From Squalus acanthias (Eukaryota), in contig CM059429.1 in NCBI GenBank assembly GCA_030390025.1, positions 138,198,001-138,262,000 of the forward strand: a stretch of 64,000 bases of DNA, written 5' to 3'. This document shows, in pieces, positions 3,609 to 64,000 of this stretch. The notes under the pieces were generated by a model, which was given only the letters and a program-made list of their open reading frames with translations, searched no databases and was not told where the DNA came from. Made by a program: the position numbers and the translations under genes. Numbering within the stretch: position 1 is the stretch's first letter; each line of letters opens with the position of its first letter.

Positions 3609-4140
3609 GATGCTTGTTGCTTGTTCTGTGTGTATGACCAATTGTTGTTTCTCTTGTACCATATGCTGTTACCTATTCTGAATGCTCCACCATATGCTGG
3701 TCCCATGTTTATGGATTAGTCACTGTGTTTTTTGCATCATATTCTTTTGGGGCTGTTTGCTAATCTTAGCTTGGAAAAAAAAAGTCAGCATGAGTATAAA
3801 GTGGCGAAGCCAAATGTTTAGTTGTGCTGCTTGTTTTCTAATGGGAGCGGGTGGAAGAAAATACACCTGTAGGCGGCATAACAGCATGCAGCAGCCTGCA
3901 GCAACTATAGGAAAAACAGATGTCCCATAATTTTGATTCTCGTGGTTGTTGGGAGCAGAAAAACATTTGGAAATTTGTCCTCTGCTGCTGATAGTGTTTA
4001 AATACAAGGGACAGAGTTACTCTGAGATCCCCCTTAGAGAGCGAGCCACAAGCAAGAGAAATGGTCAGTGGACTTCTTGTTTGGTACAGAATATTGAACT
4101 CCTGGCATAAATATGGAGGTCTGGCTTAATCACTAGCTAT

Positions 4141-5265: not shown

Positions 5266-8217
5266 TCATGTCCAAATTCCTGCCCGCTCCCCGTAACCCT
5301 TAATGCCCTTTACTTCTAGGAAACTGTCTATTTCTGTTTTAAATTTAATTAATGTTGTAGCTTCTACAGCTTTTTGTGGCAGCATATTCCATGGACCTAC
5401 CACCCTCTGAGTGAAGTAGTTCCTCCTCATCTCAGTTTTGAAAGAGCAGCCCCTTATTCTAAGACTATGTCCCCTAGTTCTCGTCTCACCCGTCATCGGG
5501 AACATCCTCCCCGCATCCACCCGATCCAACCCCTTCACAATCTTATATGTTTCAATAAGATCGCCTCTCATTCTTCTGAACTCCAATGAGTAGAGTCCCA
5601 ATCTACCCAACCTCTCCTCATATGACCACCCCCTCATCCCCGGGATTAACCGAGTGAACCTTTTTTGCACTGCCTCGAGAGCAAGGATGTCTTTCCTTAA
5701 GTAAGGACACCAAAACTGTATGCAGTATTCCAGGTGCGGTCTCACCAATACCTTGTACAACTGAAGCAATACCTCCCTATTTTTATATTCTATCCCCCTA
5801 GCAATGAAAGCCAACATTCCATTTGCCTTCTTAATCACTTGCTGCACCTGCATACTAACCTTTTGAGTTTCGTGCACCAGGACCCCCAGATCCCTTTGCA
5901 CTTCAGTACTCTCCAGTTTCTTGCCATTAAGATAATAAATTGCTCTAGGATTTTTCCTGCCAAAGTGCATCACCTCACACTTTCCAGTGTTGTATTCCAT
6001 CTGCCAAATCTCTGCCCACTTACTTAGCCTGTCTATGTCCCCTTGCAGGTTTTTTATGTCCTCCTCACTCACTACTTTCCCTCCCATCTTTGTATCATCT
6101 GCAAATTTTGATATGTTACACTTGGTCCCTTCCTCCAAATCGTTAATATAGATTGTGAAGAGTTGGGGACCCAGCACTGACCCCTGTGGAACACCACTAG
6201 TTACTGATTGCCAGTCTGAGAATGAACCATTTATCCCAACTCTTTGCTTTCTGTTAGATAGCCAATCCTCTATCCATGCCAGAATATTACCCCCAATCCC
6301 GTGATTTTTTACCTTAAGCAATAATCTTTTGTGTGGCACCTTGTCAAATGCCTTTTGGAAGTCTAAATACACTACGTCCACTGGTTCCCCTTTATCCACT
6401 CTATATGTTACTTCCTCAAAGAACTCCAGCAAATTTGTCAAACATGACTTCCCCTTCGTAAAACCATGCTGACTTTGTCCTATTAAATTATGATTATCCA
6501 AATGTCCTGTTACTGTTTCCTTAATAATGGACTCCAAAATGTTACCTACCACAGATGTTAGGCTAACCGGTCTATAGTTACCAGCCTTCTGTCTACTGCC
6601 CTTTTTAAATAAGGGTGTTACATTAGCAGTTTTCCAGTCTGCCGGGACCTTAGCGGAATCCAGGGAGTTTTGAAAAATTATTACCAATGCATCTACAATC
6701 CCTACCGCCACTTCCTTCAAGACTCTAGGATGTAAGCCATCAGGTCCAGGTGATTTATCCACCTTGAGTCCCATTATTTTACCGAGTACCACTTCCTTAG
6801 TGATTTTGATCGTGTTTAGCTCCTCTCCCCCTATAGCCCCCTGTTTGTCCAGTGTTGGGATATTCTTAGTGTCCTCTACTGTAAAGACTGATACAAAATA
6901 TTCATTCAGTGTTTTTGCCATCTCCATATTTCCCACCATTAATTTCCCGGTCTCATCCTCTAAGGGACCAACATTTACTTTAGCCACCCTTTTTCTTTTT
7001 ATATAACTATAAAAACTCTTACTATCTGTTTTTATATTTTTTGCTAATTTACTTTCATAATCTATCTTCCCTTTCTTAATCAATCTTTTTGTTATTTTTT
7101 GCTGCCTTTTAAAGTTTTCCCAATCCTCTGTCCTCCCACTAGATTTCGCTACCTTATATGCCCTTGTTTTTAGTCGAATACTATCCTTAATTTCTTTACT
7201 TAGCCACGGATGACTGTCCTTTCTTTTACACCCTTTTCTTTTCAGTGGAATATATTTTTTTTGGAAGTTGTAAAATAACTCCTTGAATGTACACCACTGA
7301 TCATGTGTCGTCTTACCCTTTAATCTATTTTCCCAATCCACTCTACTCAATTCCGCTCGCATACCTTCATAGTCTCCTTTATTCAAGCTTAGCACGCTTG
7401 TTTGAGATCCAACCTTCTCACCCTCTAATTGAATATGGAATTCAACCATGTTATGGTCACTCATTCCAAGGGGATCCTTTACTAGGACATTTTTAATTAA
7501 TCCTGTCTCGTTACACAGGACCAGATCTAAGGTTGCTTGCCCCCTGGTCGGTTCAGTTACATACTGCTCAAGAAACCCATCCCTAATACACTCAATGAAC
7601 TCATCCTCAAGGCAGCCCTGCCCCATTTGATTTGTCCAATTAATATGATAGTTAAAATCCCCCATAATTATAGATGTTCCCTTATTACATGCCTCAACTA
7701 TTTCCTGATTGATACTCCGTCCAATAGAGTTGCAACTGTTCGGAGGCCTATAGACTACGCCCACTAATGTTTTTTTCCCCTTATTATTCCTTATCTCCAC
7801 CCAAACTGTTTCATTATCATGATTTTTTGACCCAATATCATTACTCTGTATTACAGTGATTCCTTCCTTTATTAACATAGCCACCCCACCTCCCCTTCCT
7901 TCCTGCCTGTCCTTCCTGATCGTTAAATAACCTGGTATGTTTAATTCCCAGGCATTGTCACCCTGCAGCCATGTTTCTGTAATGGCCACAATATCATAAC
8001 CATATGTAGTTATTTGTGCCATTAACTCGTCTATTTTGTTACGAATGCTACGTGCATTCAGATAGAGAACTTTCAAATATGCTTTGTGGCACTTAGTTCC
8101 TGCTTTTTCACTTTTTACCAGTTTACCTTTTACTCCACACACTCTGTCCCTTCCTGCCACGCTCTGATTTGTGATTCCCCTACTGCTACCTATGTCTATG
8201 ACCCTCTCTGTTGTCAT
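5266..8217 (-). CDS. CR1 ORF2: AP endonuclease + reverse transcriptase, 983 aa, uninterrupted
   Basis: APE motifs YLNARSI, ITETWL, VYRPP, GDFN, LDLVL, SDH. RT motifs NYRPVSLTS, YLDFQKAFDKVPH, GVPQGSVLGP, FADD. Confidence 0.97.
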   Translation of the reverse strand: MTTERVIDIGSSRGITNQSVAGRDRVCGVKGKLVKSEKAGTKCHKAYLKVLYLNARSIRNKIDELMAQITTYGYDIVAITETWLQGDNAWELNIPGYLTIRKDRQEGRGGGVAMLIKEGITVIQSNDIGSKNHDNETVWVEIRNNKGKKTLVGVVYRPPNSCNSIGRSINQEIVEACNKGTSIIMGDFNYHINWTNQMGQGCLEDEFIECIRDGFLEQYVTEPTRGQATLDLVLCNETGLIKNVLVKDPLGMSDHNMVEFHIQLEGEKVGSQTSVLSLNKGDYEGMRAELSRVDWENRLKGKTTHDQWCTFKELFYNFQKKYIPLKRKGCKRKDSHPWLSKEIKDSIRLKTRAYKVAKSSGRTEDWENFKRQQKITKRLIKKGKIDYESKLAKNIKTDSKSFYSYIKRKRVAKVNVGPLEDETGKLMVGNMEMAKTLNEYFVSVFTVEDTKNIPTLDKQGAIGGEELNTIKITKEVVLGKIMGLKVDKSPGPDGLHPRVLKEVAVGIVDALVIIFQNSLDSAKVPADWKTANVTPLFKKGSRQKAGNYRPVSLTSVVGNILESIIKETVTGHLDNHNLIGQSQHGFTKGKSCLTNLLEFFEEVTYRVDKGEPVDVVYLDFQKAFDKVPHKRLLLKVKNHGIGGNILAWIEDWLSNRKQRVGINGSFSDWQSVTSGVPQGSVLGPQLFTIYINDLEEGTKCNISKFADDTKMGGKVVSEEDIKNLQGDIDRLSKWAEIWQMEYNTGKCEVMHFGRKNPRAIYYLNGKKLESTEVQRDLGVLVHETQKVSMQVQQVIKKANGMLAFIARGIEYKNREVLLQLYKVLVRPHLEYCIQFWCPYLRKDILALEAVQKRFTRLIPGMRGWSYEERLGRLGLYSLEFRRMRGDLIETYKIVKGLDRVDAGRMFPMTGETRTRGHSLRIRGCSFKTEMRRNYFTQRVVGPWNMLPQKAVEATTLIKFKTEIDSFLEVKGIKGYGERAGIWT

Positions 8218-8255
8218 TTTTATTTTTTGCTCTCTTGAAACCTCCCCCCCACTAA

Positions 8256-9212
8256 TTAGTTTAAAGCCCTCTCCACAGCCCTAGTTATTCGATTCGCCAG
8301 GACACTAGTCCCAGCACTGGCCAAGTGAAGTCCGTCCCAACGGAACAGCTCTCTCCTGCCCCAGTACTGGTGCCAGTGTCCCAAGAAGCAAAACCCATTT
8401 TTCCCACACCAGTCTTTGAGCCACGCATTCAACTCCCTGATTTTATTTACCCTAGCCAAATTTGCTCGTGGCTCAGGTAGTAATCCAGAGATTATTACCC
8501 TCGAGGTTCTGCTTTTTAATTTGGCCCCTAGCTGCTCAAACTCCCTCAGCAGAACCTCTTTCCTTGTCCTATCTATGTCATTGGTACCAACATGGACCAC
8601 GACAACTGGATCCTCCCCCTCCCACTCCAAGTTTCTCTCCAGCCCAGAGGAGATGTCCTTAACCCTGGCACCGGGCAGGCAACACAGCCTTCGGGACTCT
8701 CGCTCTTGGCTGCAAAGAACCCTATCTATCCCCCTAATGATACTATCCCCTACCACTACAACATTTCTTTTTACTCCCCCCACTTGAATGGCCCCCCTTA
8801 CCACGGTGCTGTGGCCAGGTTGCTCATCCTCCTTGCAGTCCCCGCTCCTATCCACACAGGGAGTAAGAGCCTCGAACCTGTTGGACAAGAGCAAGGGCTG
8901 CGGCTCCTCCAACACTACCTCCTGGATCCCTGTACCTGCCTCACTCGTAGTCACACCTTCCTGTCCCTGACCACGGGCTACTTCTGAATTAGTTACTCTA
9001 ATTGGTGTGACTACCTCCTGAAACACGGAGTCCAGGTAACTCTCCCCCTCCCTGATGTGTCGCAGTGTTTGAAGCTCGGACTCCAGCTCATCAACACGGA
9101 GCCGGAGTTCCTCGAGCAGCCAACACTTACTGCAAATGTGTTCACCGTGAACATCAATGGTGTCCACCAGCTCCCACATATTGCAGCAGTAACACATCAC
9201 CTGCTCTCCCAT
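8256..9212 (-). CDS. CR1 ORF1: N-terminal Cys/His zinc finger, coiled coil, SGNH/GDSL esterase, 318 aa, uninterrupted
   Basis: CYCC..W...HICSKC, heptad LEELRLRVDELESELQTL, esterase blocks VVGDSII, HVGTND, DGLH. Confidence 0.93.
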   Translation of the reverse strand: MGEQVMCYCCNMWELVDTIDVHGEHICSKCWLLEELRLRVDELESELQTLRHIREGESYLDSVFQEVVTPIRVTNSEVARGQGQEGVTTSEAGTGIQEVVLEEPQPLLLSNRFEALTPCVDRSGDCKEDEQPGHSTVVRGAIQVGGVKRNVVVVGDSIIRGIDRVLCSQERESRRLCCLPGARVKDISSGLERNLEWEGEDPVVVVHVGTNDIDRTRKEVLLREFEQLGAKLKSRTSRVIISGLLPEPRANLARVNKIRELNAWLKDWCGKNGFCFLGHWHQYWGRRELFRWDGLHLASAGTSVLANRITRAVERALN

Positions 9213-19009: not shown

Positions 19010-20200
19010 ATGGATGGACTGGTAGGTTTGCCTTTGGGGCTGGAGGAGGTGGAGCAGGGAAGAAGACAGGAGAGAGCAGGAGCAGCTAGGAGAAGGGGAG
19101 GAACCGGGCGCTGTGCAGGAGGCCATCCCCACAGCGGGTATTCAGGCAGCATTTATAGCTCAACCTCGCTGAGGAGCAATGTGTCGGGTACCTGCGCGTC
19201 ACAAAGGAGGCGGTCACCGAGCTATGTCACAAAGGAGGCTGTCACCGAGCTATGTCACAAAGGAGGCTGTCACCGAGCTATGTCACAAAGGAGGCTGTCA
19301 CCGAGCTATGTCACAAAGGAGGCTGTCACCGAGCTATGTCACAAAGGAGGCTGTCACCGAGCTATGTCACAAAGGAGGCTGTCACCGAGCTATGTCACCT
19401 GCCGCAGCCACAACTGGAACTCCAAGTCCGGGCTTGGACAGCACTGCCTGTGGCTGTCAAGCTCACCGTGACCCTTAACCTTTACACCACGGGGTCCTTC
19501 CAGGCTGCAGCAGGTGACGTCAGCGACATCTTCCAGTTTGCTGTGCTGTTACTATATCAGAGAGGTGTCCCAAACTCTACTCCAGGGGGAACACATACTT
19601 CGCATTCCTCATGGTCAGAACAAAGCATTGCAGGCTTCTCTAGGGTTCAAGGTGCCATAGATTGCACGCACATTGCCTTGCGTACTCCCTATTACCATCC
19701 TGGCATCTTTCTCAATAGAAACGGCTACCACTCCCAGAAGCAGCGCACCATGTAGATCTGTGCCGGGTTTCACGGCAGCAGTCATGATTCATTCAGCCTG
19801 CGCCAGTCCTATGTGATGCCTTTATTCCAACCAGGCTTCCAGGTTACAAACTGGCTACTGGATGACTAGGGATATCCCCTCAGGGCATGGGTATGACTCC
19901 TGTCAGGAACCCGGGCACAGCAGCAGAGCTGGCTTACAACGAGAGCCATGCTGGCACCAGAAATATCATTTAGCAGACAATTGGTGTGCTCAAGCAATGC
20001 TTCCGCTGCCGGGACCATTCGGAAGGAGCCCTGCCTGTGTTTCTGGATTTGTGGTAGTGTGCTGCATAACTTCGCTATACTGAGGGACTAGCACTGGGGC
20101 AGCATGAAGTGGAGGAGGAGGAAGCGAAGGGCAAAGAGTAGGAAAATCAGGAGCAGTATTGATACACGTGCCCTGGCTACAGCCTGCAGCATCTTGGTGT
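19010..20200 (+). pseudogene. Harbinger (HARBI1-like) DDE transposase, decayed
   Basis: ALPVAVKLTVTLNLYTTGSFQAAAGD, AGFSRVQGAIDCTHIAL, FLNRNGYHS, GSSHDSF, WLLDD*GYP; stops and frameshifts. Confidence 0.85.
19198..19398 (+). repeat. 28-bp minisatellite x7 inside the transposase
   Basis: GTCACAAAGGAGGCTGTCACCGAGCTAT at 19198, 19226, 19254, 19282, 19310, 19338, 19366 plus 5 bp; one mismatch in the first copy. Confidence 0.95.
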
Positions 20201-21439
20201 GGGCTGGGGCAGTTTGGCCCAGCTGGCTGTGTGGCACTAAGAAGGGCACTGGCAGATTGCGTAGTGGAAATGCAGGCATGCTGCTGCCCTGAGAGCGGAC
20301 AGCAGGTACCTCCTGGGGCTGTGCCTCAGCATTCTTGCCTCTCTGCGCGACAACAGAGTGTAGGAGTGATGTGACACTCCAGAAGCACCTGTCAACACTG
20401 TCTTCTGGACCCAAGGTGGCAGCAGTCTGAGCTTCAATGCAGCTGGGAGCTAAGCTTCTCGCATTGACCTCTTCAACCACGTCTTCCCACTAGCGGCGGA
20501 AGTGTTGCCTGGACAGCTTTCTGCTCTCTGGTGGGGTAACAGGATCGCCCTCCTCCTGCACACCGTCTGGACCAGGGCCATCCAGCAGTGCATCAGAGAA
20601 CCTAGGAACCCTCTCGGGACCTCTTGCAGCCACTTTGCACCTTTCAACGTTTCCTGCTGTCTACAGTCAGAGTGTAGCTCCCCTGTAAGCGTTGCTGGCT
20701 GCATGCCTGACACATGATAATGAGTTCCCAACATGGATTTCACATAGTCCCTGTGCACACATGATCAGGCAAGTCAGCGCGTGTACCACCCCCTGCACGT
20801 CCCTTTTCGGGCGCGATCAAATTTCTAGGCCCTAGTGCATTTAAACTGCCTATAACAACCCAACAAATCAAGTTACTACAGATGTGCCACCGGCAAGTGG
20901 TAGGATCTAGTGGAGAATGAAATCCAATTTAAATACATTCAAACCACTTAGATGGAAACTTTTCCTCTACACAGTTGGAAATTTTACAATTAGTATGCAA
21001 TTTGCTTATACGTATAACAGTCCTGTAGTTCAAAAATAATTTATTGTGTGAAGTGCTTTGAGATGTTTCAACATGATATGATATATAAATGCAAGTGTTA
21101 ATATTATAATTTCAGCTTCCAGGCAATTGGGGTTTAGTTCTATAAAATAATTTTAAAGCGATAATGACTGCATGCTTCTTGAATTGGAGATAAGCAAACC
21201 TTCTGGTTAGGTTTTTGAGATATTGGACAAAGTAGCTTTTGGTTTGCTAAAGATATTTACTTGAGTGAAAAGTCATTTAACTATTTAACTCTGGGCGCAT
21301 CATTCTGTCCTCTGACAACATCCACACACAAGCACTTTCCAATAGGTGCCATTGGATAGTGATCGGAAGCAGGAATCCTGGCTCTTTCTCGCTCTACCTC
21401 AAGGACACTGAAGCAAATTGTAATCTCATGAGCCCATGA

Positions 21440-27764: not shown

Positions 27765-29281
27765 TTTCTTAACCTTGGCCGCAGGTGTCCATGCGGCAGA
27801 TGGCACAGCTTTACATCTGGCTTTCTGCTGTCCTGGACCCTGAGAGATAAGTTGCCCGTGGTCGTTGTCAGCTAGGTGTGACAATACCTTCAGATATTGT
27901 TGGTGGCATCTTGGTGGGTGAAGCCAATCGGGGCGAGCTGGCTGTTGATTGCCCTGGCAAACCTCTCGTACAATGCCACTGAGTGTGTGACACATACAGT
28001 TATTCTGGAATTCATTTGTCAATGTTGAGACTCCAGAGGAATGGAACTTCCACACATTTTCTGCTCCAGGCGGCCTGATTTATACTAGTAGAATATCCAG
28101 GCTTGTGTGGTTTGGATTTATTTTCAATTTTATTTATATCTTTAGTGGAACAAAGAAGAAACACAGAAACCAGCGCCCATGCAGATAAGGATATCTGAGT
28201 AGAAGGGAAGGAGGGTGTGTTCATTTGAAAAACATTTTGACTCTCCACTTTCAACTGTTGGATTAAACTGTGTTACAATTCAAGTTTCTTCCAATACTTT
28301 ACTCATGGTCACAGCAACATGGCAGTTATCATCCACAGGCCCACACATCCAGTGACGTGCTGGGACCTCAGCTGGTTGTCCTATGACAGCCTGCAACATG
28401 CAAATACCAGCGGGGCCCAGATTCTTAGCCACTTTCCCTCCTGTCTGCCCTGCTTAGCGATGTTCCATGGGACCATCAGGTGAAGTCAAGTGATAGTCTG
28501 TGGGCTAGTGGCTGGCAGACCCTGAACTGTGAGAATCGGGGGGGTGCGGGGGGGGGGGGGGTGCTTTGTAGTGGTCTCTTTTCCCTCCAATTTCCCCCAA
28601 ACACCTACCGTGGTAGGCCTCGGTTAACTGCATCTTCGGGGAGGGGACCCTCTGCCCTTTTACATGCCCTGGTTCTTTGGGTGCTGCAGTAGCAGTCGTG
28701 CTGCAGCACCGCCTAATTTTCTTGGGTGACACTGCTGGTGGCAACCTCCTCAGGAGCCCATGTTACATTATGACTCCTGACCCAGGAAAATGGACCGGGG
28801 GCCTGGCGGGGTGGGATTAGCGACTAGAAGTCCCGCCCAACTCTAAGGGAGGGAAAAAGAAAATCCGCCCCTACATATTTCAGGATAATTTGTAAGATGT
28901 ATATTCACTGAGAACCAAAATAAATCAACAGATAAAACAGCAATACAGTATCTAATTTTCACAGATACTTTAAACCAGTTTTTAAAAATCAAAATAATAA
29001 AGTGCTTCAGAATTCTTAGGCCGCGACTTTGCCATAGGAGGCGGGTTCGCATCGGGTCGGCTGGTCGGCGGTTTCCAGTCCCGCTGCCGGTTTCAGCCGC
29101 ACTGAAATAACTATTTTGCCTTAACTGGGCTGATTACGTGCTCGTTACCCGGCCCAATCAGTGGGTTCGGGTCTGCTGCTCGCCTCTGCTGACGTCTTCG
29201 ATTCGGCTGCATTAAGGGGTCCGTGCAGCCTTGTGGTGTTTCATTCACATTCTGATGCTTCTCAGTGTTACTGATAGCGAG

Positions 29282-32182
29282 ATGACTGCTTCAAGAGCCA
29301 AGGCTTCTCCCAGATTCGATGATGACTCCATCCATGCTCTCGTGGAGGGAGTGAGAGGGCGCAAGGAGGTTCTGTTCCCCTCCAATGAACGTAGGAAACC
29401 TCCTCGGCAAACCAAGGCAGCCTGGCTGCAAATTGCTGAGGAGGTTAGCGCCAGGTCTTTGTGTGCACGCACATGGGTTCAGTGCAGGAAAAGGTTCAAT
29501 GATCCGCTACGCTCAGGAAAAGTGAGTATAACATCACACTTGCCTTCAATCTGCTCCCCATCTCTTCTCATCACCAGCACTCTGCATTGTCAATCTACTC
29601 CTCCACATCCCAACTCACCCGTGCATCCCTTGCACCCTTAACCATCCCTCTCTCTCTCTGTACAGACTCACTCCACCGTTCTACTATTTTTTTTATTTAT
29701 TCGTTTATGGGATGTGGGCGTCGCTGGCAAGGCCAGCATTTATTGCCCATCCCTAATTGCCCTTGAGAAGGTGGTGGTGAGCCGCCTTCTTGAACCGCTG
29801 CAGTCTGTGTGATGAAGGTACTCCCACAGTGCTGTTAGGGAGAGAGTTCCAGGATTTTGACCCAGCGACAATGAAGGATCGGCGATATACTTCTAAGTCA
29901 GGATGATGTGTGACTTGGAGGGGGAACAAGAGGTGGTGGTGTTCCCATGTGTCTGCTGCCCTTGTCCTTCTAGGTGAAAGAGATCGTGGGTTTGGGAGGT
30001 GCTGCCGAAGAACCTTGGCGAGTTGCTGCAGTGCATCTTGTAGATGGTACACACTGCAGTCACGGTACGCCGGTGGTGGAGGGAGTGGATGTTTAAGGTG
30101 GTAGAGGGGGTGCCAATCAAGTGGGCTGCTTTGTCCTGGATGGTGTCGAGCTTCTTGAGTGTTGTTGGAGCTGCACTCATCCAGGCAAGTGGAGAGTATT
30201 CCATCACACTCCTTACTTGTGCCTTGTAGATGGTAGAAAGGCTTTGGGGAATCAGGAGGTGAGACACTTGCCGCAGAATACCCAGCCTCTGACCTGCTCT
30301 TGTTGCCACAGTATTTATGTGGCTGGTCCAGTTAAGTTTCTGGTCAATGGTGACCCCAGGATGTTGATGGTGGGGGATTCGGTGATGGTATTGACATTGA
30401 ATGTCAAGGGGCGGTGTTTAGACTCTCGCTTGTTGGAGATAGTCATTGCCTGGCACTTGTGTGGCGCGAATGTTACTTGCCACTTATCAGCCCAAGCCTG
30501 AACGTCGTCCAGGTCTTGCATGCGGGCATGGACTGAGGAGTTGCGAATGGCGCTGAACACTGGCAGTCATCAGCGAACATCCCTACTTCTGACCTTATGT
30601 TGGAGGGAAGGACATTGATTAAGCAGCTGAAGATGGTTGGGCCTAGAACACTGCCCTGAGGAACTCCTGCAGCGATGTCCTGGGGCTGTGATGGTACTAT
30701 GCACCCCTCACACTCGTTCTCACTGTTATGCAATGGCAACACCTAACAACGCACAGGGAGTGCCCTTGGTATTGGCACCTCACTCTATCTTTGTCTCCCT
30801 CTAAGCATCTATGCTATGGATTCTCTACATTCACTCCAACATTCTCGCTCAAACTGCACCTGTGTCCCTCATTGCAGGAAAAGGGAGCCCACAATAAGAG
30901 GGAGAGGTGGAGGACAGGAGGAGGGCCACCTTCCATGGCGCTCTTAACCACCGCTGAGGAGGCTGCTATTGAGATTGTCGGACGTGCAGAGGAGCTGGAA
31001 GTGGGGGACGGAGAGACGGGCACAGTAGAGCAAGCTGGTGACAGAATAGATTAGATTTCATGAGTGACTGATATGGCATCTGATGTTCATACAGATTGAG
31101 TTCTGATCATCTACCCAATGGGATGTGTCTGCTACGTTAATATCACATGCCTAACTCATGCCTTTACTCCCCCACAAGACCATCGAGAGCCCCCCTCCCC
31201 ACTGTCCAGGAGGAAGAGCTGGAAGTCTCCTCGGAGGAAGCTGCAGCCTCTGAGGGAGCAGCATCAGCAGAACTGAGCGCACCCAGCACCAGCGCAGAGA
31301 CACACACCTCGGTGGGTCATTCGCGAGATATAGTAGTGATGTCACCTGGTGTATCACAGCTCACAAGTGAGCATCAGCAGATGGTGGAGACAGGGACAGC
31401 AGTGGAGAGTCCTCGTCGGAGGGCGCTGAATGCTCCTAGCTCTGCTCAGCTGCATGTAGATGCTGTGCCTCTGGAGCCATCCAGAAAGAGAGCGGTGCTG
31501 GAACTTCAGGATCAAGTGCCGGAGTCTCTGACAGGGTTTGCAACAACTGTAACTGTGAGTGTTCAGAGAATGGAGGAGTCCATCTCAAACATGAGCAATG
31601 CCGTGGTACACGCAATGGAGAATGTAGGTCCCGCCATGGAAAGGATGGCAACCTCCATGGAGGACATAAATCGCCAGACACAAATTAACATGGTGACTCT
31701 TCTAAATAGATGGTCTGCTATGGAGGATAGATGGGCATCTATTGAGGAGAGGAACCAGAGGTACATGGACATCCTCGTTATGAGGACTGTCAGTACAGTG
31801 ACGGGTTCTCATGGCCCCACTGATGTGTAGCAAGGTACTCTCCATCTACTTGCTAGCAGTGAAGTGCGGGTGACCCATGAGAGGGATGTTGGTGGTCGAC
31901 AACAAGGAAGTGTTGGCTCCTCTCCAAGTGCTCACACTGCGGAGTCCTCGGTCAGAGCCCCAGATTCCTCACCCAACTGAGATGGCCATCTCAGCCCCTG
32001 CACAGCTGCAGGAGGAGCAGACTGTTGCGGAGCCCTCCCAGGCTCCCAAAGCGAAAGGACGCCCGCCAAAGGCGTCGAAGCAGGTGCAGCATTAAAGTGA
32101 GCAAGGTGTCTCTACATTTGCTGAAGCCACAGGGGAAGTACCACGTAGAAGCACGCGTAAGAGAAAGTCTACACACAAATAG
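29282..32182 (+). pseudogene. Three-exon Harbinger Myb/SANT protein gene (Myb DBD, acidic/disordered region, coiled coil, AT-hook-like KGRPPK, basic RRSTRKRK)
   Basis: Exon 1 29282-29521, exon 2 30878-31037, exon 3 31178-32182. Exon-3 acceptor AG changed to AA, premature stops at 31828 and 32093, frameshift near 31945. Confidence 0.85.
29688..30694 (-). mobile_element. 5'-truncated CR1-group LINE in Myb intron 1
   Basis: GVPQGSVLGP, FADD, ATRAGQRLGILR...VRSVMEYSPLAW; poly(A) tail; TSD TACTAT at 29682-29687 and 30695-30700. Confidence 0.9.
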
Positions 32183-32950
32183 TCACTAAGGTAGTCACTT
32201 GGGTGTTTTGATCGAATACAAAGTTACGTTTCTTATCGTTATTTCAATTGTATTAAAGAAATGCGATGGCAAAGATTCAAAGAGTTGGCCTATGTGTGCT
32301 CAAAAATGGAAGTTGCACAGTGAGGGGTCAGGGCACCTTTCATCTGTAATGATGGTGGTGAGAGTGACAGGAAACCACAGTTTATTGTACAGATGCTGTA
32401 TAGTGTGTTAAGAAGGTCACTTACAAGCTCAATAGACCGGCAGAATGTGTTCCAAAACCTCAGAACAGAAAGTTCTGGCATCTGAAAGTCGGCCATGTTA
32501 AAGGTCCGCTTTTATGCTGCAGGAGCAGCTGTCAAGTATTCAGCTAGTTGCTGAACCCGGCACAATCAGCTGGCGTGTTTGTCGCACGATGTGCAACACG
32601 CTGAAAATGTAACAAAATGGGAAGAGCCTCTTAAAATCGGATTATCTCTCCCACCGCTTGGTGTCGGGTTTGATCGGAACTCGCAGACCCGACACTTTGT
32701 AAAGTTGTGTGGAGGCGGGATGGTGGCGTGTTCGCAACCCACCGTCAATCATTTTGATTTTAAGTCCCGACCCACCTCCAAACCCACCCTCTGAGCGCTG
32801 GCAAAATCGCGGCCTTCATCTTTTTTCAGAGTCGTTAACTGGTTATTGGATTGATATTACATCAGCACTTCAACTACATAGAATTCTGCCTTGTTGCCAT
32901 GACATAATTCCAGTTCCACTAAATGAGCTAAAAATATTGCTAATAGCTAC

Positions 32951-33374
32951 AGGTGTCAGCATTGGCTCAGTGGTAGCACTCTCGCCTCTCTAAGTCAGAA
33001 GGTTGTGGGTTCAAGTCCCACTGCAGAGACCTCAGCACATAACCTTGGCTGATATTTCATTACATGAGGGAGTGTTGCACTGTTAGAGGTCCTGTCTTTT
33101 GCAGGACGTAAAAAATCCCATGGCACTATTCGAAAAAGAGCAGGGCAGTTCTGTCTGGTGTCCTGGCCAATATTTATCCCTCAACCAACATTGCTAAAAC
33201 AGATTATCTGGTCATTTATCTCATTGCTGTTGCTTGGACCTTGCTGTGTTGGCTGCCACGTTTCACTACGTTACAACAGCGACTATACTTCAAAAGTACT
33301 TCATTGGCTGTAAAGCAGCTTGGGATGTCCTGCGGTCATGAAAGGTGCTATATAAATGCAAGTTCTTTCTTTCT
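32951..33374 (+). mobile_element. DeuSINE, near full length
   Basis: A box TGGCTCAGTGG, B box GGTTCAAGTCC, Deu core, tail. Confidence 0.85.
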
Positions 33375-35402
33375 ATTTACCCCTGGTCTATCTGTAGCTG
33401 CTGACACCTCAAAAACCAAAGGAAACTTGTCGCAATCAGCAAGTGCCTTTGAAATAAACCCAAACTCTTTTCTCAACAGGTTGGTAATCAATACTAATAA
33501 TTTCTATCACTGGGAACTGTTTTAAAAAAAAACACTGCTGACTGACTGACTAATTTATTTATTACATCAGACTCAAGACAAAGCCAATTGGAATTTTATG
33601 TTTGCGCAGGCCACTCCCTTCCCCTTTGTGGAAACCTTATGATCAACAAGCTATCAAATCTTATATCTACAGAAGAGAATTTCTATACTACTTACACATA
33701 ATGCCTCCAGATAGAAGTATAGATTTGCACTGTGTACAGGGTCTCGAGATCCTTAGCAGAAACAACAGCCATGGCTTCCATTTTAAAAAATCCTAGTGCC
33801 CTGGCCTAGTTACAATTTAAATTAAAAGTATGATATAGAGATATTTATTAACACGACGCAGAATGGAACATGTGTTCAAATGTGAATTGTTTGTTGTTTT
33901 TCAGTTTAAAACAAGATATTCAATAGACATTCACACAAACACGGTATGAGGTGAGCTGTTGATAAATATTTTGAAAGGTGTCCAACAGTTTCCACCTTAT
34001 TGCATCGTACTTACTACATGCAAATGTCATGGTTTTGTTTCTTGATTAGACATATCCGTTGCTAATCAGAACTCCCATGAATTTGCTCTCTGGAGAGCTC
34101 CGTGCCATTTGGGTTGACTGCTTGCTTTTATCTATCCTCTCCTTTTCACTAATGAGAAGGCCTAATTATAAATTTGATGCTGGATGGCTGTCAGCTATGG
34201 TTTACTGTATAGTACAGTGTAAGGGAGATACCGAGTCATTTTCAGGCAGCAGCTGTCATACAGCTGTTCGAAGCAATATTAAAGGCTCTTTTATCTGTTT
34301 CATTTTGGAATTCTCGCACTTCATTAAACAAGACAACTGCCATCAAACTGCTGCCTTTTTTTAGTTACAGGATGTGAAAGACCTACCACTCGTGACCTGT
34401 CTCTTGTTAATAAAAGTGTTGTTTTGAGGGGCTGTCTTACAGCAGACCGGCAAGTCCGTCATTGGTGCTGTTGACTTGCAGCTGTCTTAGTCCCAAGATG
34501 ATCGTGTTTGTTTATCCTTTCTATTCCCAATAATATGACAGCACATAAAAATGGCTTCTGAGGGTCAAAGGTAAATGAATGCTAAGCATGTTGTGAGTGC
34601 AGTGAAAGCATCTGACTTCATTACACTGAACAGCTCTTTACCTTTAAGTTAGAATGGCCTCTGAGTTGAGGGGTCATGAATAGCATTGACAGTACAGTAC
34701 TACACTAAATCACCAATGTTTCAAGTGAATATAGGTAACTGGTTGACACAGTAATTAAAACATTCAAGCCCCGATTTTAATTCGGACTGAGAATCAGGGG
34801 TGCAGAGGCTGAAGTGGGTGGCGATCTGTTCAGTTCCCCCGAAGTGTGAGGCCCAGGCGATTTGAACTCCCCAGGCCTCATTTATATCGCCTTCACTGAC
34901 TCCTGCCCGAAGCCGGCAGGGATGAATAAAATAGTCCACGTAAATTAAGTCCTAGTCAGGGTTATCATCCTCACTTGGAGTTTTTATTTTCATCATGTAA
35001 GCAAGTATCCTGCTGATGCAGATAATGCAAGTCCCAGGGAGATGTGTATTGCTTTCAGGGTCTTGGAAAGAAGCACCTTGTGGGGATTATGTCGCAGATT
35101 GTTCTTATTACATGTTTCAGTATCAATATCAGCATGTGATTGAATGACAGAATCTGCACACCTATTACTTTCATCCTCCCCTCTCCCTGAAATGGAGGCC
35201 TGTTCTACTGCAGCCAATGATTGATAAGGCCCTCGCATTGATGGCAAGGAAGATGTAAGATGAGGCTGGCTCTGAGCTCATCAATTTTTGGGTTTGGAGT
35301 TCTTCAACTTGTGTTGAAACTATTGGTTTCCCCACGACTCATGTTTTATAAAGGAATGTGTTCATTTTATTTGATCGCTCACTATCGCTGCATTCACTTA
35401 GA

Positions 35403-35615
35403 TTGAGCCTTGGCTCAATGGTAGCACTCTTGCCTCTAGAGTCAAAAGGTCATGTGTTCAAGCACCACTCACATAATCTAATTTCAAATAAAGCTGTTGG
35501 ACTATAACCTGGTGTTGTGCGACTTCTCACTATAATCTAGGTTGACACTTTAGTGCTGCACTGTCAAAAGTGCTATCTTTTGACTGGGACGTTGGACCAA
35601 GGTCCAATCTGCTCT
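35403..35615 (+). mobile_element. Degraded DeuSINE 5' part hosting a 51-bp Penelope insertion
   Basis: tggctcaatggtagcactcttgcctct...gttcaagcaccactc; SINE sequence resumes after the insert. Confidence 0.65.
35481..35531 (+). mobile_element. 51-bp Penelope terminal fragment
   Basis: Identical to 56482-56532; TSD ATAATCTA at 35473-35480 and 35532-35539. Confidence 0.85.
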
Positions 35616-36079
35616 CTGGTCACCAAGCTCAGATGACCATTGGGATCCAGATTTCATGAGTTCCTGCTTTAGTTTTCTGTGCAGATACTCCTTTTCATAT
35701 GACATTTAAAGATTATCAAGTAGAATGTGCTTTTATACAGTGGGGAAAAAACCAATGGTAAACAGATTGTTCCTATACCCAAGATTTATTGATCTAGCTT
35801 TCAATTTCATTTGTCACAAATTGCATGTTGTTATCAAATGTAAGTTATGATGAATAACATAAGGTGAGAGGGTGATGATATCAGAATGTGGGCAGTGTCC
35901 TACATTTGGCAGAGTATGGAACTGTGATGGCCTGGAGCGCTCTCGATCTGCCACCCAGTCCAAGAATGGAAATGTGGCACATTTATCCACAGTCCTAAAT
36001 TGATGAAACCTGCTGGGAGACAAGAGCACGTGAGGGAGAGGTTTTGTTAAACATGTGTTTAAAGTCTTATTTGGCTTAT

Positions 36080-36410
36080 GCAGACTTGGCATGTAATTCC
36101 AGCCATCTTGGAGCATTGTCATCACCAGTATGCAAAGTGTGCAGTCCACCAGATAGTTTAGTTAGTGGATTCAGCGATGTGCGACGTGGTTGATATTTCT
36201 CCACATGGACATTTGTCATCGTCACAAAGGCCCCATTGGTGCAGATTTGAGGCGCACTCTCCCTGTCTAATTTGAAAGTGGTTGAGAGTGCCCAGCAACG
36301 ACGTGGCCAGTTGAGTCCTGCTCTGTAGGGTCGGAGATGACATGGTGATTTGTAGGAGCATCTGCTGTCTACTCTTCCCGCCAGCGAGTTGAGAAGGAAA
36401 AGTCAAAGGA
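36080..36410 (-). mobile_element. Old non-LTR retrotransposon C-terminal fragment with CCHC-type knuckle (clade uncertain)
   Basis: TLNHFQIRQGECASNLHQWGLCDDDKCPCGEISTTSHIAES resembles the LNRFRTG.GRC...WG....C.CG..QT..HI motif. Confidence 0.55.
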
Positions 36411-36606
36411 ATCAGGAAAGATTGACCATATTGAGTATCTCAAAGAGAGCCCACACTGTTGGTGGATACAACAATATGAAGTCTGATAGAGTTATCCAGT
36501 ATTGCAGTGACTCCTCACTGTCTCATTGCTTATTCCTATAATTGTCTTCTCATTCTGCATAGGCTATTCCTCATTTTTATTATGTTTTTCCCCTCTGAAA
36601 GACCTT

Positions 36607-37237
36607 GGAGTTGAAATTGTTATACATTGCACTCATATTTTGGCATAAAACAGGTGCAAAGCATACCAATTTAGCAGTGGGGGGGCCTGTACTCAATGTG
36701 CGCAAACGTTGGTCCCATTGCTAAATTCATGGGACCCTTTTTTTTTTAAGGAGTCTCCGGGCGGATGCACGGAACAGAAGTTGGGCTCCTTAACTATGTA
36801 AATTAGGGACATACGTCTGTCTAAGGACCCCATCAAGAAATTTGTCGGCTTATTTTTTCTTCAGCGACCCCACGGCCACCAACGAAAGGTCAATGACATT
36901 CTTTTTTAAAACGCCCCCAGTGGAGCCGGAGAGCAGGTTGTGCTCCCCCTGACTCCACAGGTAACGCAATTGCCCCACCTCCCGTAGCCCGTTCCGACCC
37001 CCGCCCCCTCCTGGGACTTACCTGAGGGCCACTGCCGGTGGGCAAGTGGCCTGACATTGATGTCTTTGATTGGGCGAGCTGTCTGTGGAGTAACCAGCGC
37101 TGGCAGCTTGTGCCGAGTAGGCCGATGAGGCCCAAGAACCAATTTCCATTGATCCACGGGCCACTCGGTTTAGGTGGGCAATGGGTGTTCAGCAGCGAGT
37201 GTGGGCCCATGAAGGGACCTAGATCAAAATCTACCCC
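36607..37237. mobile_element. Harbinger-like MITE
   Basis: Imperfect TIRs GGAGTTGAAATT / AAAATCTACCCC with CTT on both flanks; GC-rich interior. Confidence 0.55.
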
Positions 37238-38782
37238 CTTGAATGTATCTGTGCAAAACCCATTTTTTTCCACCCCTCTAAATAATTTTCCCTTTTAGCG
37301 CAGAGCTCTGATTTAATGCCAGTTGATTCATAAAACAGTGGTGAACTTTTCATTGTTGCCCTTTGGCTTCTCACCTAAGTTTTTTTTTGAGAGTCATATT
37401 CACAATCCTGCATCTCAGTGTTAATATTTTCCATTTGCTATTGCCTGGTGAGGCATCTCCTGTTTCATTCTGATTTATGTTTGCTTGTCACTCTGAAAGT
37501 ATATAGCACCATTCAAGCTCTAACCTTGGAAGCACTGTTTAAGTTTCGGCTTTCAAAATATACTAGTGCACTAGTGGACCTCGCATGGCATTGCTCACGG
37601 TGAGTCCATGCTGTTTTGTAACTGGGCTAGTCAAGCTCTGATAACAACCCTTCTTCTATTTCCCAGTAGAGGTACAGACGAGTGAGGTGATCGCTATTAA
37701 TGGAAAACTGCTCACCTCTGAAAACCCAGCATTAGATGACAAGATATGTCAGTGGGGAATGAAAGAAATAGAGAGCGCTTTCTAACCCTGCTACCGCCCC
37801 CCCCAGTGACTACTGGTCAGGAATAAAGCAGACAAACTAACAGTGCTATCAGCTCTCTCATCAGGTACGCATATGACTGCGGCTGCTTCCAGTTTACTCT
37901 CTCTCCCGCCGCCCCCCCACCCCCCCTTGCCGTTTAGGACCTACTGAACCTGATTACAGAGAATTTATTTTAAATTATGAAAAGAATTTCCAGTCCTTGT
38001 AGGCAGTGTTTAAGTGTATCGTTTTCTCGGGGACCGTACACTTTCAGTGACACTAACAATCTAAATAAAAATTAAACTAAGATGGATCTTCAGGCTGCGG
38101 TCATTGTAGAAGATTGACGCGAAGGTTTAGTTAAGCAGGGTGATGTGAGGCAGGTGTAAGAGGGAGAATTTTGTCTTGTAAAATGTTATTGATGATTTTT
38201 TGTAGAGCGTGACTGCATAAGTGTTAACCAATGAAAAAGAAGAAAAATGACGTGAGACTGTTACAGAGACATAAAGGGCAGAATTTTCATTGACCCTTGG
38301 AGGCGTGTGGGGGGTTAAAATTGTGAAAACTGGCGGGCGGGCACACTCCCGCCTCCACGCAATTTTCATTAAATCGTGTCTGCTGGTCCCGACTCCGTCC
38401 CGCCTCCAAGAGGCGGGATAGGCCGTTAAGGCCCTTAACAAGCACTAAATTGCCTCTATAATGCCATTTTGAAAGGCCTTTGTGATTTTAACCCTTTTTC
38501 CACGTGAAGCACGCCTGTTCTGAACCACGAATGTGAAACCTGGCGGTAGCACATTTGTATTGCTGACTATCAGCTGCAGCTCAACCATGAAATAGGAGAT
38601 GTGATCAGCCATCATTTGCAGTTGGCAGGACTTTGTTGTCTGAGGTCTGGCGGAACTTTTATATGGCATAACCACAGCTGTGGAAGTTTGGAGCCTGACA
38701 CCCATCTCCAGTGTGACCTCCTGGGAAACCCCTCTCGCCACCTTGACTGAGCGCTTCCTCAGCTGAGGCATATACCAGAAGC

Positions 38783-39004
38783 ATGGGAACCATTTATTTC
38801 CTTTCCTCCTGGACATCAGATTCAGACAAGGACCAGCCGTGGCAGCAGCAGAACCATGAACAACAGCACCACCAGCAGCAGCAGCATCAACAGGAGTGCC
38901 AAGCTGCTCCTCACCCACCTGAAGCTGCACAGGCCAGAAGGCGCCAGTGCGCGACCACATTGCTGCCCGAGATGCAAGGGACGCACTTGACCAGATTTGC
39001 TTAG
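38783..39004 (+). pseudogene. Internally deleted Harbinger transposase (poly-Q N-terminus joined to C-terminal remnant)
   Basis: MGTIYFLSSWTSDSD..QQQ matches the element E N-terminus (GATYAALPWTSDEDQDEQQQQ). It is followed directly by IAARDARDAL, which resembles Harbinger transposase C-termini. Confidence 0.65.
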
Positions 39005-39254
39005 CCTGCACAATCAAACACTTTTGCCTCGCACCTTCTTATCAGACCATCGACAATGGCCAGGAACCTGCAGATTCCTATCACTCTGACCACCATACTG
39101 ACAATTGCAAGTCATCCTCAGCCCTCAATGTGGAAGTCCCATTTGCGAAATGACAGACGCCACAAGTTTGCCAGCAGAATTTTTAATCACACCAAGCAAG
39201 TGCTGGCATTTCAAGATTAAACACAACATTACACCCAAGTGACTACCCTTGTGA

Positions 39255-41206
39255 CTACTTGTGCATTATTTTTCTTTTACACGTGCTCCTACGTGGTGCT
39301 TCCCCTGTGGCTTCAGCAGATGTGGAGGCCCCTTGCTCACTTTCTTGCTGCTCCTGCCTGTGAGGGCTCGGCAACAGTCTGCTGCTCCTGCGGCTGTGCA
39401 GGGGTTGAGACGCCGATCTCAGTTGGGTGAGGACTCTGGTGGGGCTCTGACCAAGGGCATTGCAGTGGTTTGGTCGTGTGAGCGCTTGGAGAGGAGCCCC
39501 CACTTCCTTGTTGTCTGCCACCAACATCCCTCTCGTGGGTCAGCCCCACCTCAGCGCTTGCAAGTGGATTGAGAGCACCTTGCTGCACATCAGGGGGGCC
39601 ATGGGGACCTGTATCTGCACTGGAAGTCCTACTCAGAAGGACTTCCATGAAGGCCTGGTTTCTCTGTTCAATAGATGACCATCGCTCCTCCAGAGATGCC
39701 AGTCTATTCTGAACAATGACCATGTTTTCTACACTCTGGCGACTTATCTGCTCCATAGCTATCCTCTCCTACTGTAGCCATCCTTTCCACAGAGGTTGCC
39801 ATCCTTTCCGTGGTGATGCGTTTATGCGCCAATGACTCCACAAAGGCGCTGCTCATGTTCGCTATGGACTCCTCCATTCGCTCCACACTCGCAGCGGCCC
39901 TGGAGACAAAACCTGCCAGAGACTCCTGCATCTGTTCCTGGAGTTCCAGCACCGCTGATCTTATGGATGGACCCAGAGGCAGAGGGTCGACATGCAGCTA
40001 AGCCGAGCTAGGAGAGTCCTGCGCCCTCCGACTAGGACTCTCCACTGCTGTCCCTGTCTCCACTATCTGCTGATGCTCACTTGTGAGCTGTGATACACCA
40101 GGTGACAACACTTGTGAGCTGTGATACACCAGGTGACAACACTACTCTATCTCGCGATGTTCCCTCCGAGGTGTGAGTGTCTGCGCTGGTGCTGGGTGCG
40201 TTGAATTCTGCTGACGCGGCGCCCTCAGAGGTTGCAGCTTCCTCCTGAGGAGTGGTGAGGCTCATGCTCTTCCTCCTGGATGGTGGGGATGGCTGCTCGC
40301 GATGGTCCTGGGGGGGAGTAAAGGAAAGAGTCAGAGATATGAGTCCAAGGTTACATGCACATTGCATATTGCAGATGATCATAAGTCAGTCTGCTGGAGC
40401 ATCAGAATCATTATCAGTGACTCATGCAATGTCAATGAGAGAGATGATAAACTATTCTGTCACTAGGTTGCTCTGATGCACCCATCTGTCCGTCCCCCAC
40501 TTGCGCATCCTCCTCCACTCCCATGATCTCCAGGACCACCTCCTCCCAGGTGGTGAGCTGGGCTACTGAGGGTGGCCCTCCTCCTGTCCTCGCTCTTTCC
40601 CTCTTATTGTGAGCTCTCTTTTCTTGCAATGAGGGAGACAAGTGGAGTTTGAGTGAGAATGAAGGAGTGAGTGTAGAGAATCTATATCATTGATGGTTAG
40701 AAGGAGACAAATTCGGAGTGAGGTGGCAAGACCAAGGGCCCTCCCTGTGTGTTGTAAGTTGTTTTCATAGCATCACAGTGATAGGGAGTGTGAGGGCTGC
40801 ATAGTCGAATAGTTAGGTGAATGTGACCATACAGAGAGAGGGAATGGGTAAGGGTGCAGGGATGTCAGTGTCAAGTGGGATGTGGAGGAAGAGGTTGTCA
40901 AAGCTGAGTGCTGGTGAAGAGAGGCAATGGGAATCAGAATGAGGGTGATGGGAAATTCATACTCACTTTTCCAGTGCGCAGCAGGTCATGAAACCTCTTC
41001 CTGCACTGAAGCCAGGTTCTGCGGGTTATGGACAACGAGTTGACCTCCTCTTCCACCTGGATCCACACAGCCTTGGTTTGATGGGAAGGCTTCTTCCTCC
41101 CTGAAGAAGGGAAGAGCACCTCCTTATTAGCTCTGGCTCCCTCAATTAAAGCTTGCAGGGCGACGTCATCAAATCGAGGTGCAGACCTAGGTCTCTGGCT
41201 GGCCAT
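39255..41206 (-). pseudogene. Three-exon Harbinger Myb/SANT protein gene, decayed
   Basis: Exon 1 41206-40967 (240 nt), exon 2 40623-40464 (160 nt, acceptor AG changed to AA), exon 3 from 40307 with a 31-bp tandem duplication (~40078-40140) and frameshifts; ends ...EAPRRSTCKRKIMHK*. Confidence 0.85.
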
Positions 41207-41677
41207 TCTTCCTGCAGGTGCCTCTAACATGCAAAGGCAGAAGCTTGGCAGTCTGCAGAGGAAGCAAGGCTTGTTGCAGACCTTAAATGCTGCAGCAATG
41301 ATGACGTCATCGGAAGCGACTTTCAGACTGGAAAAACTCACTGGCCATGGGTTCCCACACGTTGGAACTCAATTGGCCAATTATGTTAAAATCGCATCAA
41401 TCTCCCACATCGATTTAGATTCGGGTGGCTAACACGAAATGCGGATTACACGACCCCAGCCCGCCCCTGAATCAAAATCCAGCCCAAAATGTTATATAGA
41501 TTTAAGCCAAGCAGAGTGTCTTTTTGTACATTTCTTATAAAAAATCTTTTTTAAAGCTTTTTTATTTATTCTGATACAACTACTTCCATCCCCCAAGGAT
41601 CAAAGTTTTAGGATTTCACCACCTATTTTCCTCTTGTATTTGGTGATGAATGCCCATGATAGGAGTGAAATATTCTC

Positions 41678-54883: not shown

Positions 54884-56311
54884 TAAATATGAAATAATGA
54901 AAGTCCTGATGTAAATATGAAATAATGGTTTCCTTTGATATTGGGAATTATAATAAGTAATCCCTGGCACATTTGGTAATGTACTGCTCAAAGCCCCAAA
55001 CTGTCGAGATCCAGGGAGGTCCCGGGTTTGACCTGCAGTCTTTGCTGAGTTAGCTGATCTCAGCCGGGGAGGCTGTAAAGGAGACCTCAGTGGGCATCAC
55101 TTCTCCCAATCTAGTGAGCAGCCAGGATTCCCACTCTTGAGCTGGAAATTTCACTGTCCGACGCGCTGGCAGTGGGGGAGTCCTGGAGCCCATGGGGAAC
55201 CCGGATATTTCAGCAGTGCGTTTGTCAGTAGCTTTTTAACCCAGCCACTGCATTAGCACCTGACTTCCGGGTTTCCCGACCAATTAACGCGAGCGGGTGC
55301 GATGATGTCATGCATGGGTCTGTTTCAGCTGAACTATTTAAAGGGACCCTGCAAAGATAAAAGTTGAAGGATTGTCCAGGTGGGGCAACAGAGGAAACAA
55401 CTGCATTAATGGAGTCCCAATGTGGCATGGCTGCACCTCACTGAACTGATGCTTCCCTAGAGCTGATGCTGCGTTCTGTAAGGGCCCACAGGGAGATTCT
55501 CTTCCCAAGCCGACTCCAGCACATCACTCCTCTTACATACTTAACCTTGCAGGTGCACCCATTCCTATCTGTCCAGGCTCCTAAAGTGCATCTTCAGCAT
55601 TCCGATTGCTTGCTCGATGGCAGTTCGTGTGGTCATGTGGCTTTAATTGTATCTCTCCTGCGCCTCATTGTTTGGGCTCCTAACGAGTGTCATCAGCCAC
55701 GTCTCCAAGGAGCCAGCCAATAACTCTGCTTTGAGGTCCGAAGAGCTCTGGGAGGCTGGACTGGCACAGGATGAAAGCATCGTGGCAGCTGCCTGGGAAT
55801 GTTGCACATACCTGCATGATGATCTTTTTCTGGTTGCATACGAGCTGAACATTGGAGTAGAAGCCCTTGTGTTTGATAAAGACTCCAGGGTGATCTGGGG
55901 GCGCCTTGATTGCCACATATGTTTAATCGTTGACTCTCTGGACCTGTGGGAAGCCAGCCAGAGCCACAAAGCCGAGCAATCGCTCATTCGGACTGGCCTC
56001 ATCGGTTGCACATAATTGCCCACCCTGACAAACATGGCATCGGTCACCTGAGTGATGCATTTGTGGGCAGCAGATTGCGAGATTCTGCCGATATCTCCTG
56101 CAGACCCCTGGAAGGAGCCAGAGGCGAAGAAATTGAGGGCGGTGGTGACTTTAACAGCCACTGGCAAAGCGTGCCCACCAGTTCCGCTTGGCAGGAGGTC
56201 TTCTTCCAGGAGGCCGCAAATGTCTGTGACCACCTGGCGCGATACTCTGAGCCTCCTGAGGCACTGGTATTCCGACATGGCCAGGAAGCTGATCCTCTGC
56301 CTATATACTAG

Positions 56312-63480: not shown

Positions 63481-63573
63481 AAGCAGAATTCTGAATTAAG
63501 TGTTTGGATTGTATGTTTTTGAGAAATATCCTGTCTTCTAACTATATACATATATATAAATTCATTTTTGCAG

Positions 63574-63951
63574 GCATGTGTGCTGCTCAGAGACATGTCC
63601 AGATACAGGAAGGCCCCCTGGTCAGAGCAGAAGGATACCACATAACCATTTGGTGTAACGTGTCCGGGTACTCGGGTTCCACACAGCAGAACTTTGAGTG
63701 GTCAATCTATCTGCCTTCTGCACCTGAAAGACAAATCCAGATAGTCAGCACAAATGATCCCGACTACCCCTACGCTGTATATGGAAGCAGAGTACGGAAT
63801 AAGGAGGTCTACGTTGAGAGAATTGATGGGGACTCGGCGCTGTTGCACATTACTAATCTACAACTGGGAGATACAGGGGAATACGAATGTCACACTCCTA
63901 ACACAGAATCAACCTACTGGGGATCCTACAATGCCAAGGGGAATCTGACAG
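63574..63951 (+). CDS. IGSF3: IGSF3 (EWI-3) internal exon: end of signal peptide and first Ig V-set domain
   Basis: Acceptor tttttgcag| and donor |gtaagt; 378 nt, phase 1-1. AQRHVQIQEGPLVRAEGYHITIWCNVSGY...QNFEWSIYLPSAPERQIQIVST...D.GEYECHTP matches IGSF3 domain 1 as I recall it, better than IGSF8, CD101 or PTGFRN. Confidence 0.9.
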
Positions 63952-64000
63952 GTAAGTGATTCTTGGCTTTACAGTGATTGCCTTTGTTAATGTGGTGTGC

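Follow-up and report, generated by a model that had tools for sequence, protein, structure and literature searches.

Among the closest described systems, Harbinger3_DR/Harbinger3N_DR and Ping/Pong/mPing have a DDE transposase together with a Myb-like protein, make a 3-bp target duplication and show mobilisation of non-autonomous elements in trans, according to the excerpts consulted of their reports (PMC2836001, PMC9392472). Transposase-less Harbingers that keep the gene for the DNA-binding protein are already published from a nematode and from sea kraits. In Caenorhabditis inopinata, Harbinger-1M_cIno and Harbinger-2M_cIno bear a MADF/Myb gene, lack a transposase and have been amplified (PMC13668399, in the sections covered). 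In Laticauda sea kraits, Harbinger-Snek has solo open reading frame (solo-ORF) variants with the DNA-binding protein only, 452 of them intact in one species, which are ascribed to large deletions (PMC8437027, likewise in part). A 64,000-nucleotide stretch of the Squalus acanthias genome (assembly GCA_030390025.1, contig CM059429.1, positions 138,198,001 to 138,262,000 of the forward strand; "the window") holds two Harbinger elements with a Myb gene, C (29019..32814, plus strand) and D (38276..41485, minus strand). An initial annotation of the window had suggested that both may be members of transposase-less families that supply their own specificity adaptor and borrow the transposase in trans. 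D belongs to a real, amplified Myb-only (solo-ORF) family, whose intact gene is best explained by a history of recombination; C comes from an autonomous family and shows private decay, with a one-off deletion.

D shares the two-gene kinship and the 3-bp duplication with the Harbinger3_DR and Ping/Pong systems, but the usual non-autonomous elements of the Harbinger3N_DR/mPing type encode nothing in the accounts consulted, whereas D retains a whole Myb gene. The text seen of the C. inopinata report counts 19 copies with MADF only and a single intact transposase locus, the functions being split, and the supply of transposase in trans is deduced there as it is for the D family (PMC13668399). Its main text uses none of the terms purifying, synonymous, recombination and gene conversion. 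Unlike that case, the D family numbers no fewer than 794 junction copies, accompanied by complete two-gene elements in the hundreds, and it has one mapped deletion scar and a mosaic ancestry. Harbinger-Snek resembles D as a set of multi-copy vertebrate variants with the DNA-binding protein only; unlike D, it shows both solo types, the transposase-only type being commoner, and the text covered contains neither a junction history nor a selection test (PMC8437027). Rare family-level recombination between Harbinger sublineages, and the lack of Harbingers in the elephant shark, are reported in the portion seen of PMC9179366, and families that multiplied after a single deletion in that of PMC4423477. 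The paper titles covered by the literature searches include none on recombination of a deletion junction from one Harbinger subfamily to another, nor any on tests of selection in Myb-only Harbingers, which does not prove that such work is absent.

D is a copy of N1, a young transposase-less subfamily with a consensus of 3244 bp. It is flanked by the target-site duplication AAA on the left (38273..38275) and right (41486..41488). Its terminal inverted repeats (TIRs), at 38276..38290 (+) on the transposase side and 41471..41485 (-) on the Myb side, match at 12 of 15 positions, and in both C and D the short TIRs begin with GG(G/C)C, as expected of PIF/Harbinger elements. The Myb gene has three exons on the minus strand: exon 1 of 240 nt (40967..41206), which carries the Pfam domain PF13873 Myb_DNA-bind_5 (E 5e-09), exon 2 of 160 nt (40464..40623), whose acceptor is mutated in the window copy, and exon 3 (39255..40307), frameshifted in the window copy and open in the N1 consensus. 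Only about the first 56 and the last 19 codons of the transposase remain, as the initial annotation had described, joined at 38945..38948 (+) by a deletion junction that is common to the family, has lost ~1.0 kb and shows 4 nt of microhomology. The annotation was also right that the copies are decayed; with mutated splice acceptors, frameshifts and stops, the window copies of C and D are both dead. The fused remnant is a 73-aa frame (38783..39004, +) in which the N-terminal ~56 codons are joined to the C-terminal end. A 5-bp deletion of the N1 lineage reframes it to the native stop, and the 73-aa frame is open in 33 of 49 copies; it retains the N-terminal part of the transposase, and the reframing may be chance. 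That end of the transposase is the part reported to bind Myb, in the excerpt consulted (PMC9392472); the reframed peptide could even compete for Myb binding.

The family was defined by searches over the 3.71-Gb genome assembly. With the left kilobase of D as query, all 40 scored matches (the best 40 of 6358 candidates) span the junction. A 31-mer across the junction has 794 exact matches in the genome (control 0), compared with 547 for the undeleted form of this transposase start. The autonomous consensus of the D lineage is 4261 bp long with a transposase frame of 426 codons, and the frames of autonomous members range from 425 to 431 codons. Twenty of the 794 copies, sampled in genome order, are 84-98% like D and divide into 4 N1, 1 N2, 2 N3, 5 N4, 6 N5 and 2 unplaced copies. 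N1 is the youngest subfamily, at a median of 1.7% from its consensus (42 copies), or 1.8% in the 21 copies picked independently of likeness to D, and two exon 1 motifs specific to it have 347 and 331 genome matches. Identical 3-bp flanks occur in 37 of 46 full-length N1 copies, which lie at 46 different sites; the flanks have a palindromic target consensus that is common also to the autonomous sisters. Thus the proposal of a transposase-less family stands for D, with its recurring junction at distinct sites.

Not all members keep the whole gene. A further deletion, which removes ~185 codons from the C-terminal end of Myb, is present in 3 of the 20 junction copies sampled in genome order and in one nested copy, and a stop at codon 432 is common to 5 of 61 N1 copies. 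The doubly deleted copies, L086, L088, L096 and the one nested in L042, form a sub-lineage that lacks consensus positions 1681-2254, the C-terminal half of Myb, and has matching target duplications. The spread of such Myb-truncated derivatives speaks against a need for full-length Myb in cis.

Autonomous sisters of N1 came to light through its promoter motif, which leads into the junction in 250 cases and into a transposase in 3. The three transposase-bearing matches led to the subfamilies A0a and A0b, and later to A00; samples were 38 further copies of 40 matches for A0a/A0b and 20 of 40 matches for A00. Their transposase carries the domain DDE_Tnp_4 (PF13359; E 4.2e-36 for copy L103), and their ends and Myb genes are near-identical to those of N1. 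Median divergence from consensus is 1.8% for A0a, 1.5% for A0b and ~1.9% (1.1-2.9%) for A00, compared with 1.7-1.8% for N1. Because of the same age, the similar ends and the trans-acting two-protein mechanism known from the accounts of other systems (PMC2836001, PMC9392472, as excerpted), A0a, A0b and A00 are likely the transposase source that mobilises N1 in trans. In this respect the borrowing of transposase that had been proposed for D is probably correct.

The companion proposal, that D supplies its own specificity adaptor, fared differently. The Myb domain of N1 differs from that of A0b at 4 of 80 residues and from that of A0a at 5 of 80, and its residues 63-80, which we take to hold the recognition helix, are identical to those of older autonomous subfamilies. 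Since the Myb domain is nearly that of the donors, the target consensus is common and the donors encode Myb themselves, a DNA-binding specificity of its own for the N1 Myb is not supported by these sequence comparisons. The target-site consensus was also considered as a donor marker and rejected, being similar in all groups including the C family.

The ancestry of N1 differs from one part of the element to the next. N1 and A0a differ at 12 of 279 positions in the 5' untranslated region (UTR), at 17 of 340 within intron 1 and at 22 of the 496 positions of the transposase promoter. In the 3' UTR, which adjoins the junction, they differ at 34 of 253, and there N1 differs from N2, an older junction carrier, at only 4 of 253. 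By region, the divergence between N1 and A0 is 4-5% at the 5' end, in the introns and in the transposase promoter and 13% in the 3' UTR, where N1 and N2 are 1.6% apart. Trees were built from 15 rows, all consensuses, three of them of single copies, with six junction groups. Monophyly of the junction carriers is rejected over positions 1-2200 (approximately unbiased test, p 7e-78). Over positions 2400-2730 a branch with support 65/89 sets the junction groups apart on one side, their monophyly being neither shown nor rejected. A derived base adjoins the junction in 794 copies, and 8 copies have the autonomous base there, which points to essentially one origin of the junction.

Single chimeric copies are also present. 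Copy L174 (G000:C2:116957684-116962384) joins at least the first 1.2 kb of N1 to an A00 backbone and has matching flanks; the N1 5' part is present in none of 20 A00 copies, one of which is without that region. L129 and L191 bear N1 terminal sites. An autonomous subfamily with the N1 exon 1 was sought and none was found, the single carrier being the chimera. L150 is a further case of N1 ends or 5' part joined to an autonomous backbone. Together, the mosaic ancestry and the chimeras mean that junction families can owe an intact Myb gene to inheritance from donors.

The reading preferred here, to which we give a probability of roughly 60%, is that D is an N1 copy mobilised by sisters of the same age, its Myb gene mainly renewed by recombination of the scar, and that the deletion of C is private. 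One old transposase-deletion scar would have arisen by the ~1.0-kb loss at the microhomology and would have been recombined repeatedly onto successive newly active autonomous backbones, each transfer bringing fresh ends and a fresh Myb gene to the transposase-less element. N1 would then be moved in trans by the transposase of A0a/A0b/A00-type sisters. The Myb gene that it carries may be expressed and weakly constrained, its full length being dispensable in cis. That the Myb frame is intact can be accounted for more simply by recombination with autonomous elements. The parts covered of a study of wheat describe non-autonomous lineages of RLC_Angela and of Wilma/Sabrina/WHAM that exchange sequence and so change from one autonomous partner to another, and partnerships with semi-autonomous elements that retain one gene; those LTR (long terminal repeat) retrotransposons exchange LTRs, whereas D is a cut-and-paste DNA transposon, and the likeness is one of analogy, not kinship (PMC9744471). 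As to why Myb-only Harbingers keep Myb, the D family offers a route in which the gene need not be under selection, with a deletion allele that spreads between subfamilies by recombination and inherits fresh ends and Myb each time.

Selection on Myb after the loss of the transposase was judged against a neutral baseline of single-copy changes in 61 N1 copies, 170 synonymous and 472 non-synonymous or nonsense (ratio of non-synonymous to synonymous polymorphism, pN/pS, 0.87). Changes specific to N1 and absent from all 13 other groups number 5 synonymous and 7 non-synonymous, a ratio of substitution rates (dN/dS) of 0.44 with p 0.19. With fewer outgroups the N1 changes become 7+9, 9+10 and 15+13 (synonymous plus non-synonymous), giving dN/dS of 0.40, 0.35 and 0.27 and p of 0.10, 0.04 and 0.002, the last and loosest set taking in ancestral or imported states; all these p values come from several tests and are uncorrected. 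In the autonomous A00, the control, there are 15 synonymous and 13 non-synonymous changes (p 0.002), and the same test is not significant in A0a, A0b, A1 and A2. Synonymous/non-synonymous counts in N3, N4 and N5 are 0/5, 2/8 and 1/0, on 2-6 copies. The evidence for purifying selection on the N1 Myb after the deletion is suggestive only. Pairwise dN/dS between subfamily consensuses, 0.31-0.53, was rejected as proof of selection in elements without a transposase, since the branches concerned pass through autonomous ones. As a warning for similar families, intact consensus frames together with pairwise values as low as these can come from autonomous donors.

Expression data touch on the exon model. 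Contigs of two of eight runs, X7 and X8 (putative RNA from one study), skip exactly the predicted 343-nt GT..AG intron 1. The short sides of these spliced contigs are 30 and 20 letters, and in them N1 and its autonomous sisters are indistinguishable. The joint was not seen in the six other runs (X1-X4 on the window copy; X5 and X9 on L002), blanks that carry no weight. The spliced contigs weakly support the predicted exons. A joined empty-site form was left out of account because its flank may be a repeat.

Several observations weigh against a Myb gene renewed mainly from donors. The clade support in the junction region is weak, and the small subfamilies are based on 1-6 copies. No stop occurs in the Myb frame of any of the 12 subfamily consensuses examined, and most junction carriers retain the full 2.2-kb Myb region. 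Among 59 matches to an N1 exon 1 motif on contigs C1-C2, 57 carry the junction, 1 is truncated and 1 is the chimera (39 were paired by position with the junction lists, by eye and two at longer spacing; of the other 20, which were fetched, 18 have the junction). This near-confinement to junction carriers implies that the changes in the N1 exon 1 originated, or became fixed, after the transposase had been lost. The N1 Myb changes lean synonymous by every definition (0.27-0.44 vs 0.87), and the density of non-synonymous changes is below that of intron and synonymous changes (p 0.064 and 0.034; 0.003 with promoters included). The open frames, the near-confinement of the N1 exon 1 and the synonymous excess would suit a semi-autonomous partner that expresses its own Myb under purifying selection, boosts its own mobilisation through more adaptor or a local supply and borrows the transposase only. 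Such a partner would also agree with the exactly spliced intron and with the spliced Myb frame, 488 codons in the N1 consensus and intact in 5 of 53 complete N1 copies. The strictest selection test, however, is not significant, the strict counts pooled over N1, N3, N4 and N5 (8 and 20) are neutral-like, though the small groups are noisy, and the tests are several and uncorrected. Derivatives with a truncated Myb have amplified, and the spliced contigs do not tell N1 apart from its sisters. A diffusible protein gives a weak advantage in cis. The semi-autonomous partner is thus possible, but improbable on balance. It is doubtful, to a slightly greater degree, that both processes acted, the scar hopping through several waves and the Myb-only elements expressing a selected Myb, so that they work as partners in a two-component system with split functions.

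The same microhomology-mediated deletion might instead have recurred independently in each autonomous subfamily, without recombination. The 4 nt at the junction, the autonomous sister that every junction subfamily has in the Myb tree and the 8 junction copies with the autonomous letter would fit this, but the derived base is found beside the junction in 794 copies, and the junction-flanking region groups the carriers and parts N1 from its Myb sister A0. Independent recurrence is therefore largely refuted and very unlikely. It is just as hard to credit that the Myb of the transposase-less elements is an anti-silencing or host-co-opted factor. Harbinger-derived anti-silencing proteins do exist in Arabidopsis, according to the part consulted of PMC5339849, and the promoter and 5' regions change fast among subfamilies. 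Against this, no locus-specific conservation was seen among the copies, which decay near-neutrally by the singleton pN/pS, and the Myb protein differs little from the autonomous sisters' own. Since young copies number in the hundreds and both the sisters and sites diagnostic of N1 (codons 21, 41 and 42) are known, it becomes directly testable in the D family whether a non-autonomous DNA transposon benefits when it encodes one of the two proteins required.

Exon 1 shows a synonymous divergence of 0.2-0.8 between subfamilies, far above the 1-8% of the adjacent intron, and the promoters are fast-changing too. The fast regions are positions 1-520 and 2850-3244 of the D-lineage consensus; candidate causes are module swapping, a conserved intron and escape from silencing.

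Element C has a different history. Its left TIR (29019..29033, +) and right TIR (32800..32814, -) match at 14 of 15 positions, and the flanks TTA and TTC form an imperfect 3-bp pair. The initial annotation had given C and D both TIRs and 3-bp flanks, which holds for the TIRs of both and for the flanks of D; the flanks of C agree in part. As it also stated, the Myb gene of C has three exons with the same first two lengths as in D. They are exon 1 of 240 nt (29282..29521, +; PF13873 Myb_DNA-bind_5, E 5.4e-10), exon 2 of 160 nt (30878..31037, +) and a decayed exon 3 (31178..32182, +) with a mutated acceptor, an in-frame stop and frameshifts. The Myb regions of C and D are ~73% alike. A LINE (long interspersed element) fragment of ~1 kb (29687..30693) lies within intron 1 of C and is not in the fetched relatives.

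The transposase core of its own family has no match within C, which agrees with the earlier description. With the right end of C as query, only the window is unbroken, and the other 39 of the best 40 of 11698 candidates break at or before position 670. Twenty of those 39 broken matches were fetched as relatives and gave a family consensus of 4241 bp, in which the transposase frame extends from stop to stop over 425 codons and the Myb gene is open. Consensus positions 2422-3808, the whole transposase gene, correspond to a private loss of 1387 bp at the breakpoint of C (32417..32418); they are spanned by 17 of the 20 relatives, 2 having other deletions and 1 being uninformative. A 21-mer over the breakpoint, with up to 1 mismatch, has one match in the genome, the window itself. 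The idea of C as a transposase-less family was rejected, since its junction is unique, the outcome that the annotation itself had named as speaking against its proposal, and relatives span the transposase region.

The annotation had further described two elements, B and E, as having most of a transposase and a Myb stub. A partial check shows transposase fragments at 19093-20033 (+) and 55568-56308 (-); in B a Myb stub at 20448-20606 matches weakly (E 0.035), and a stub was not found in E. The regions 19093-20606 and 55568-56308 hold transposase fragments from more distant Harbinger families, which are 34-60% identical to the enzyme of the D lineage. Another Harbinger end, the third that bears Myb, occupies 1-1052 (-), with exons 1 and 2 and a TIR at 1052, and is cut by the window start. 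At 5269-8280 (-) there is an open frame of 1004 codons with a 321-codon frame upstream, which presumably encodes a LINE endonuclease/reverse-transcriptase protein and may belong to a young LINE. An open frame at 63495-63956 (+) resembles an immunoglobulin-domain exon of a host gene.

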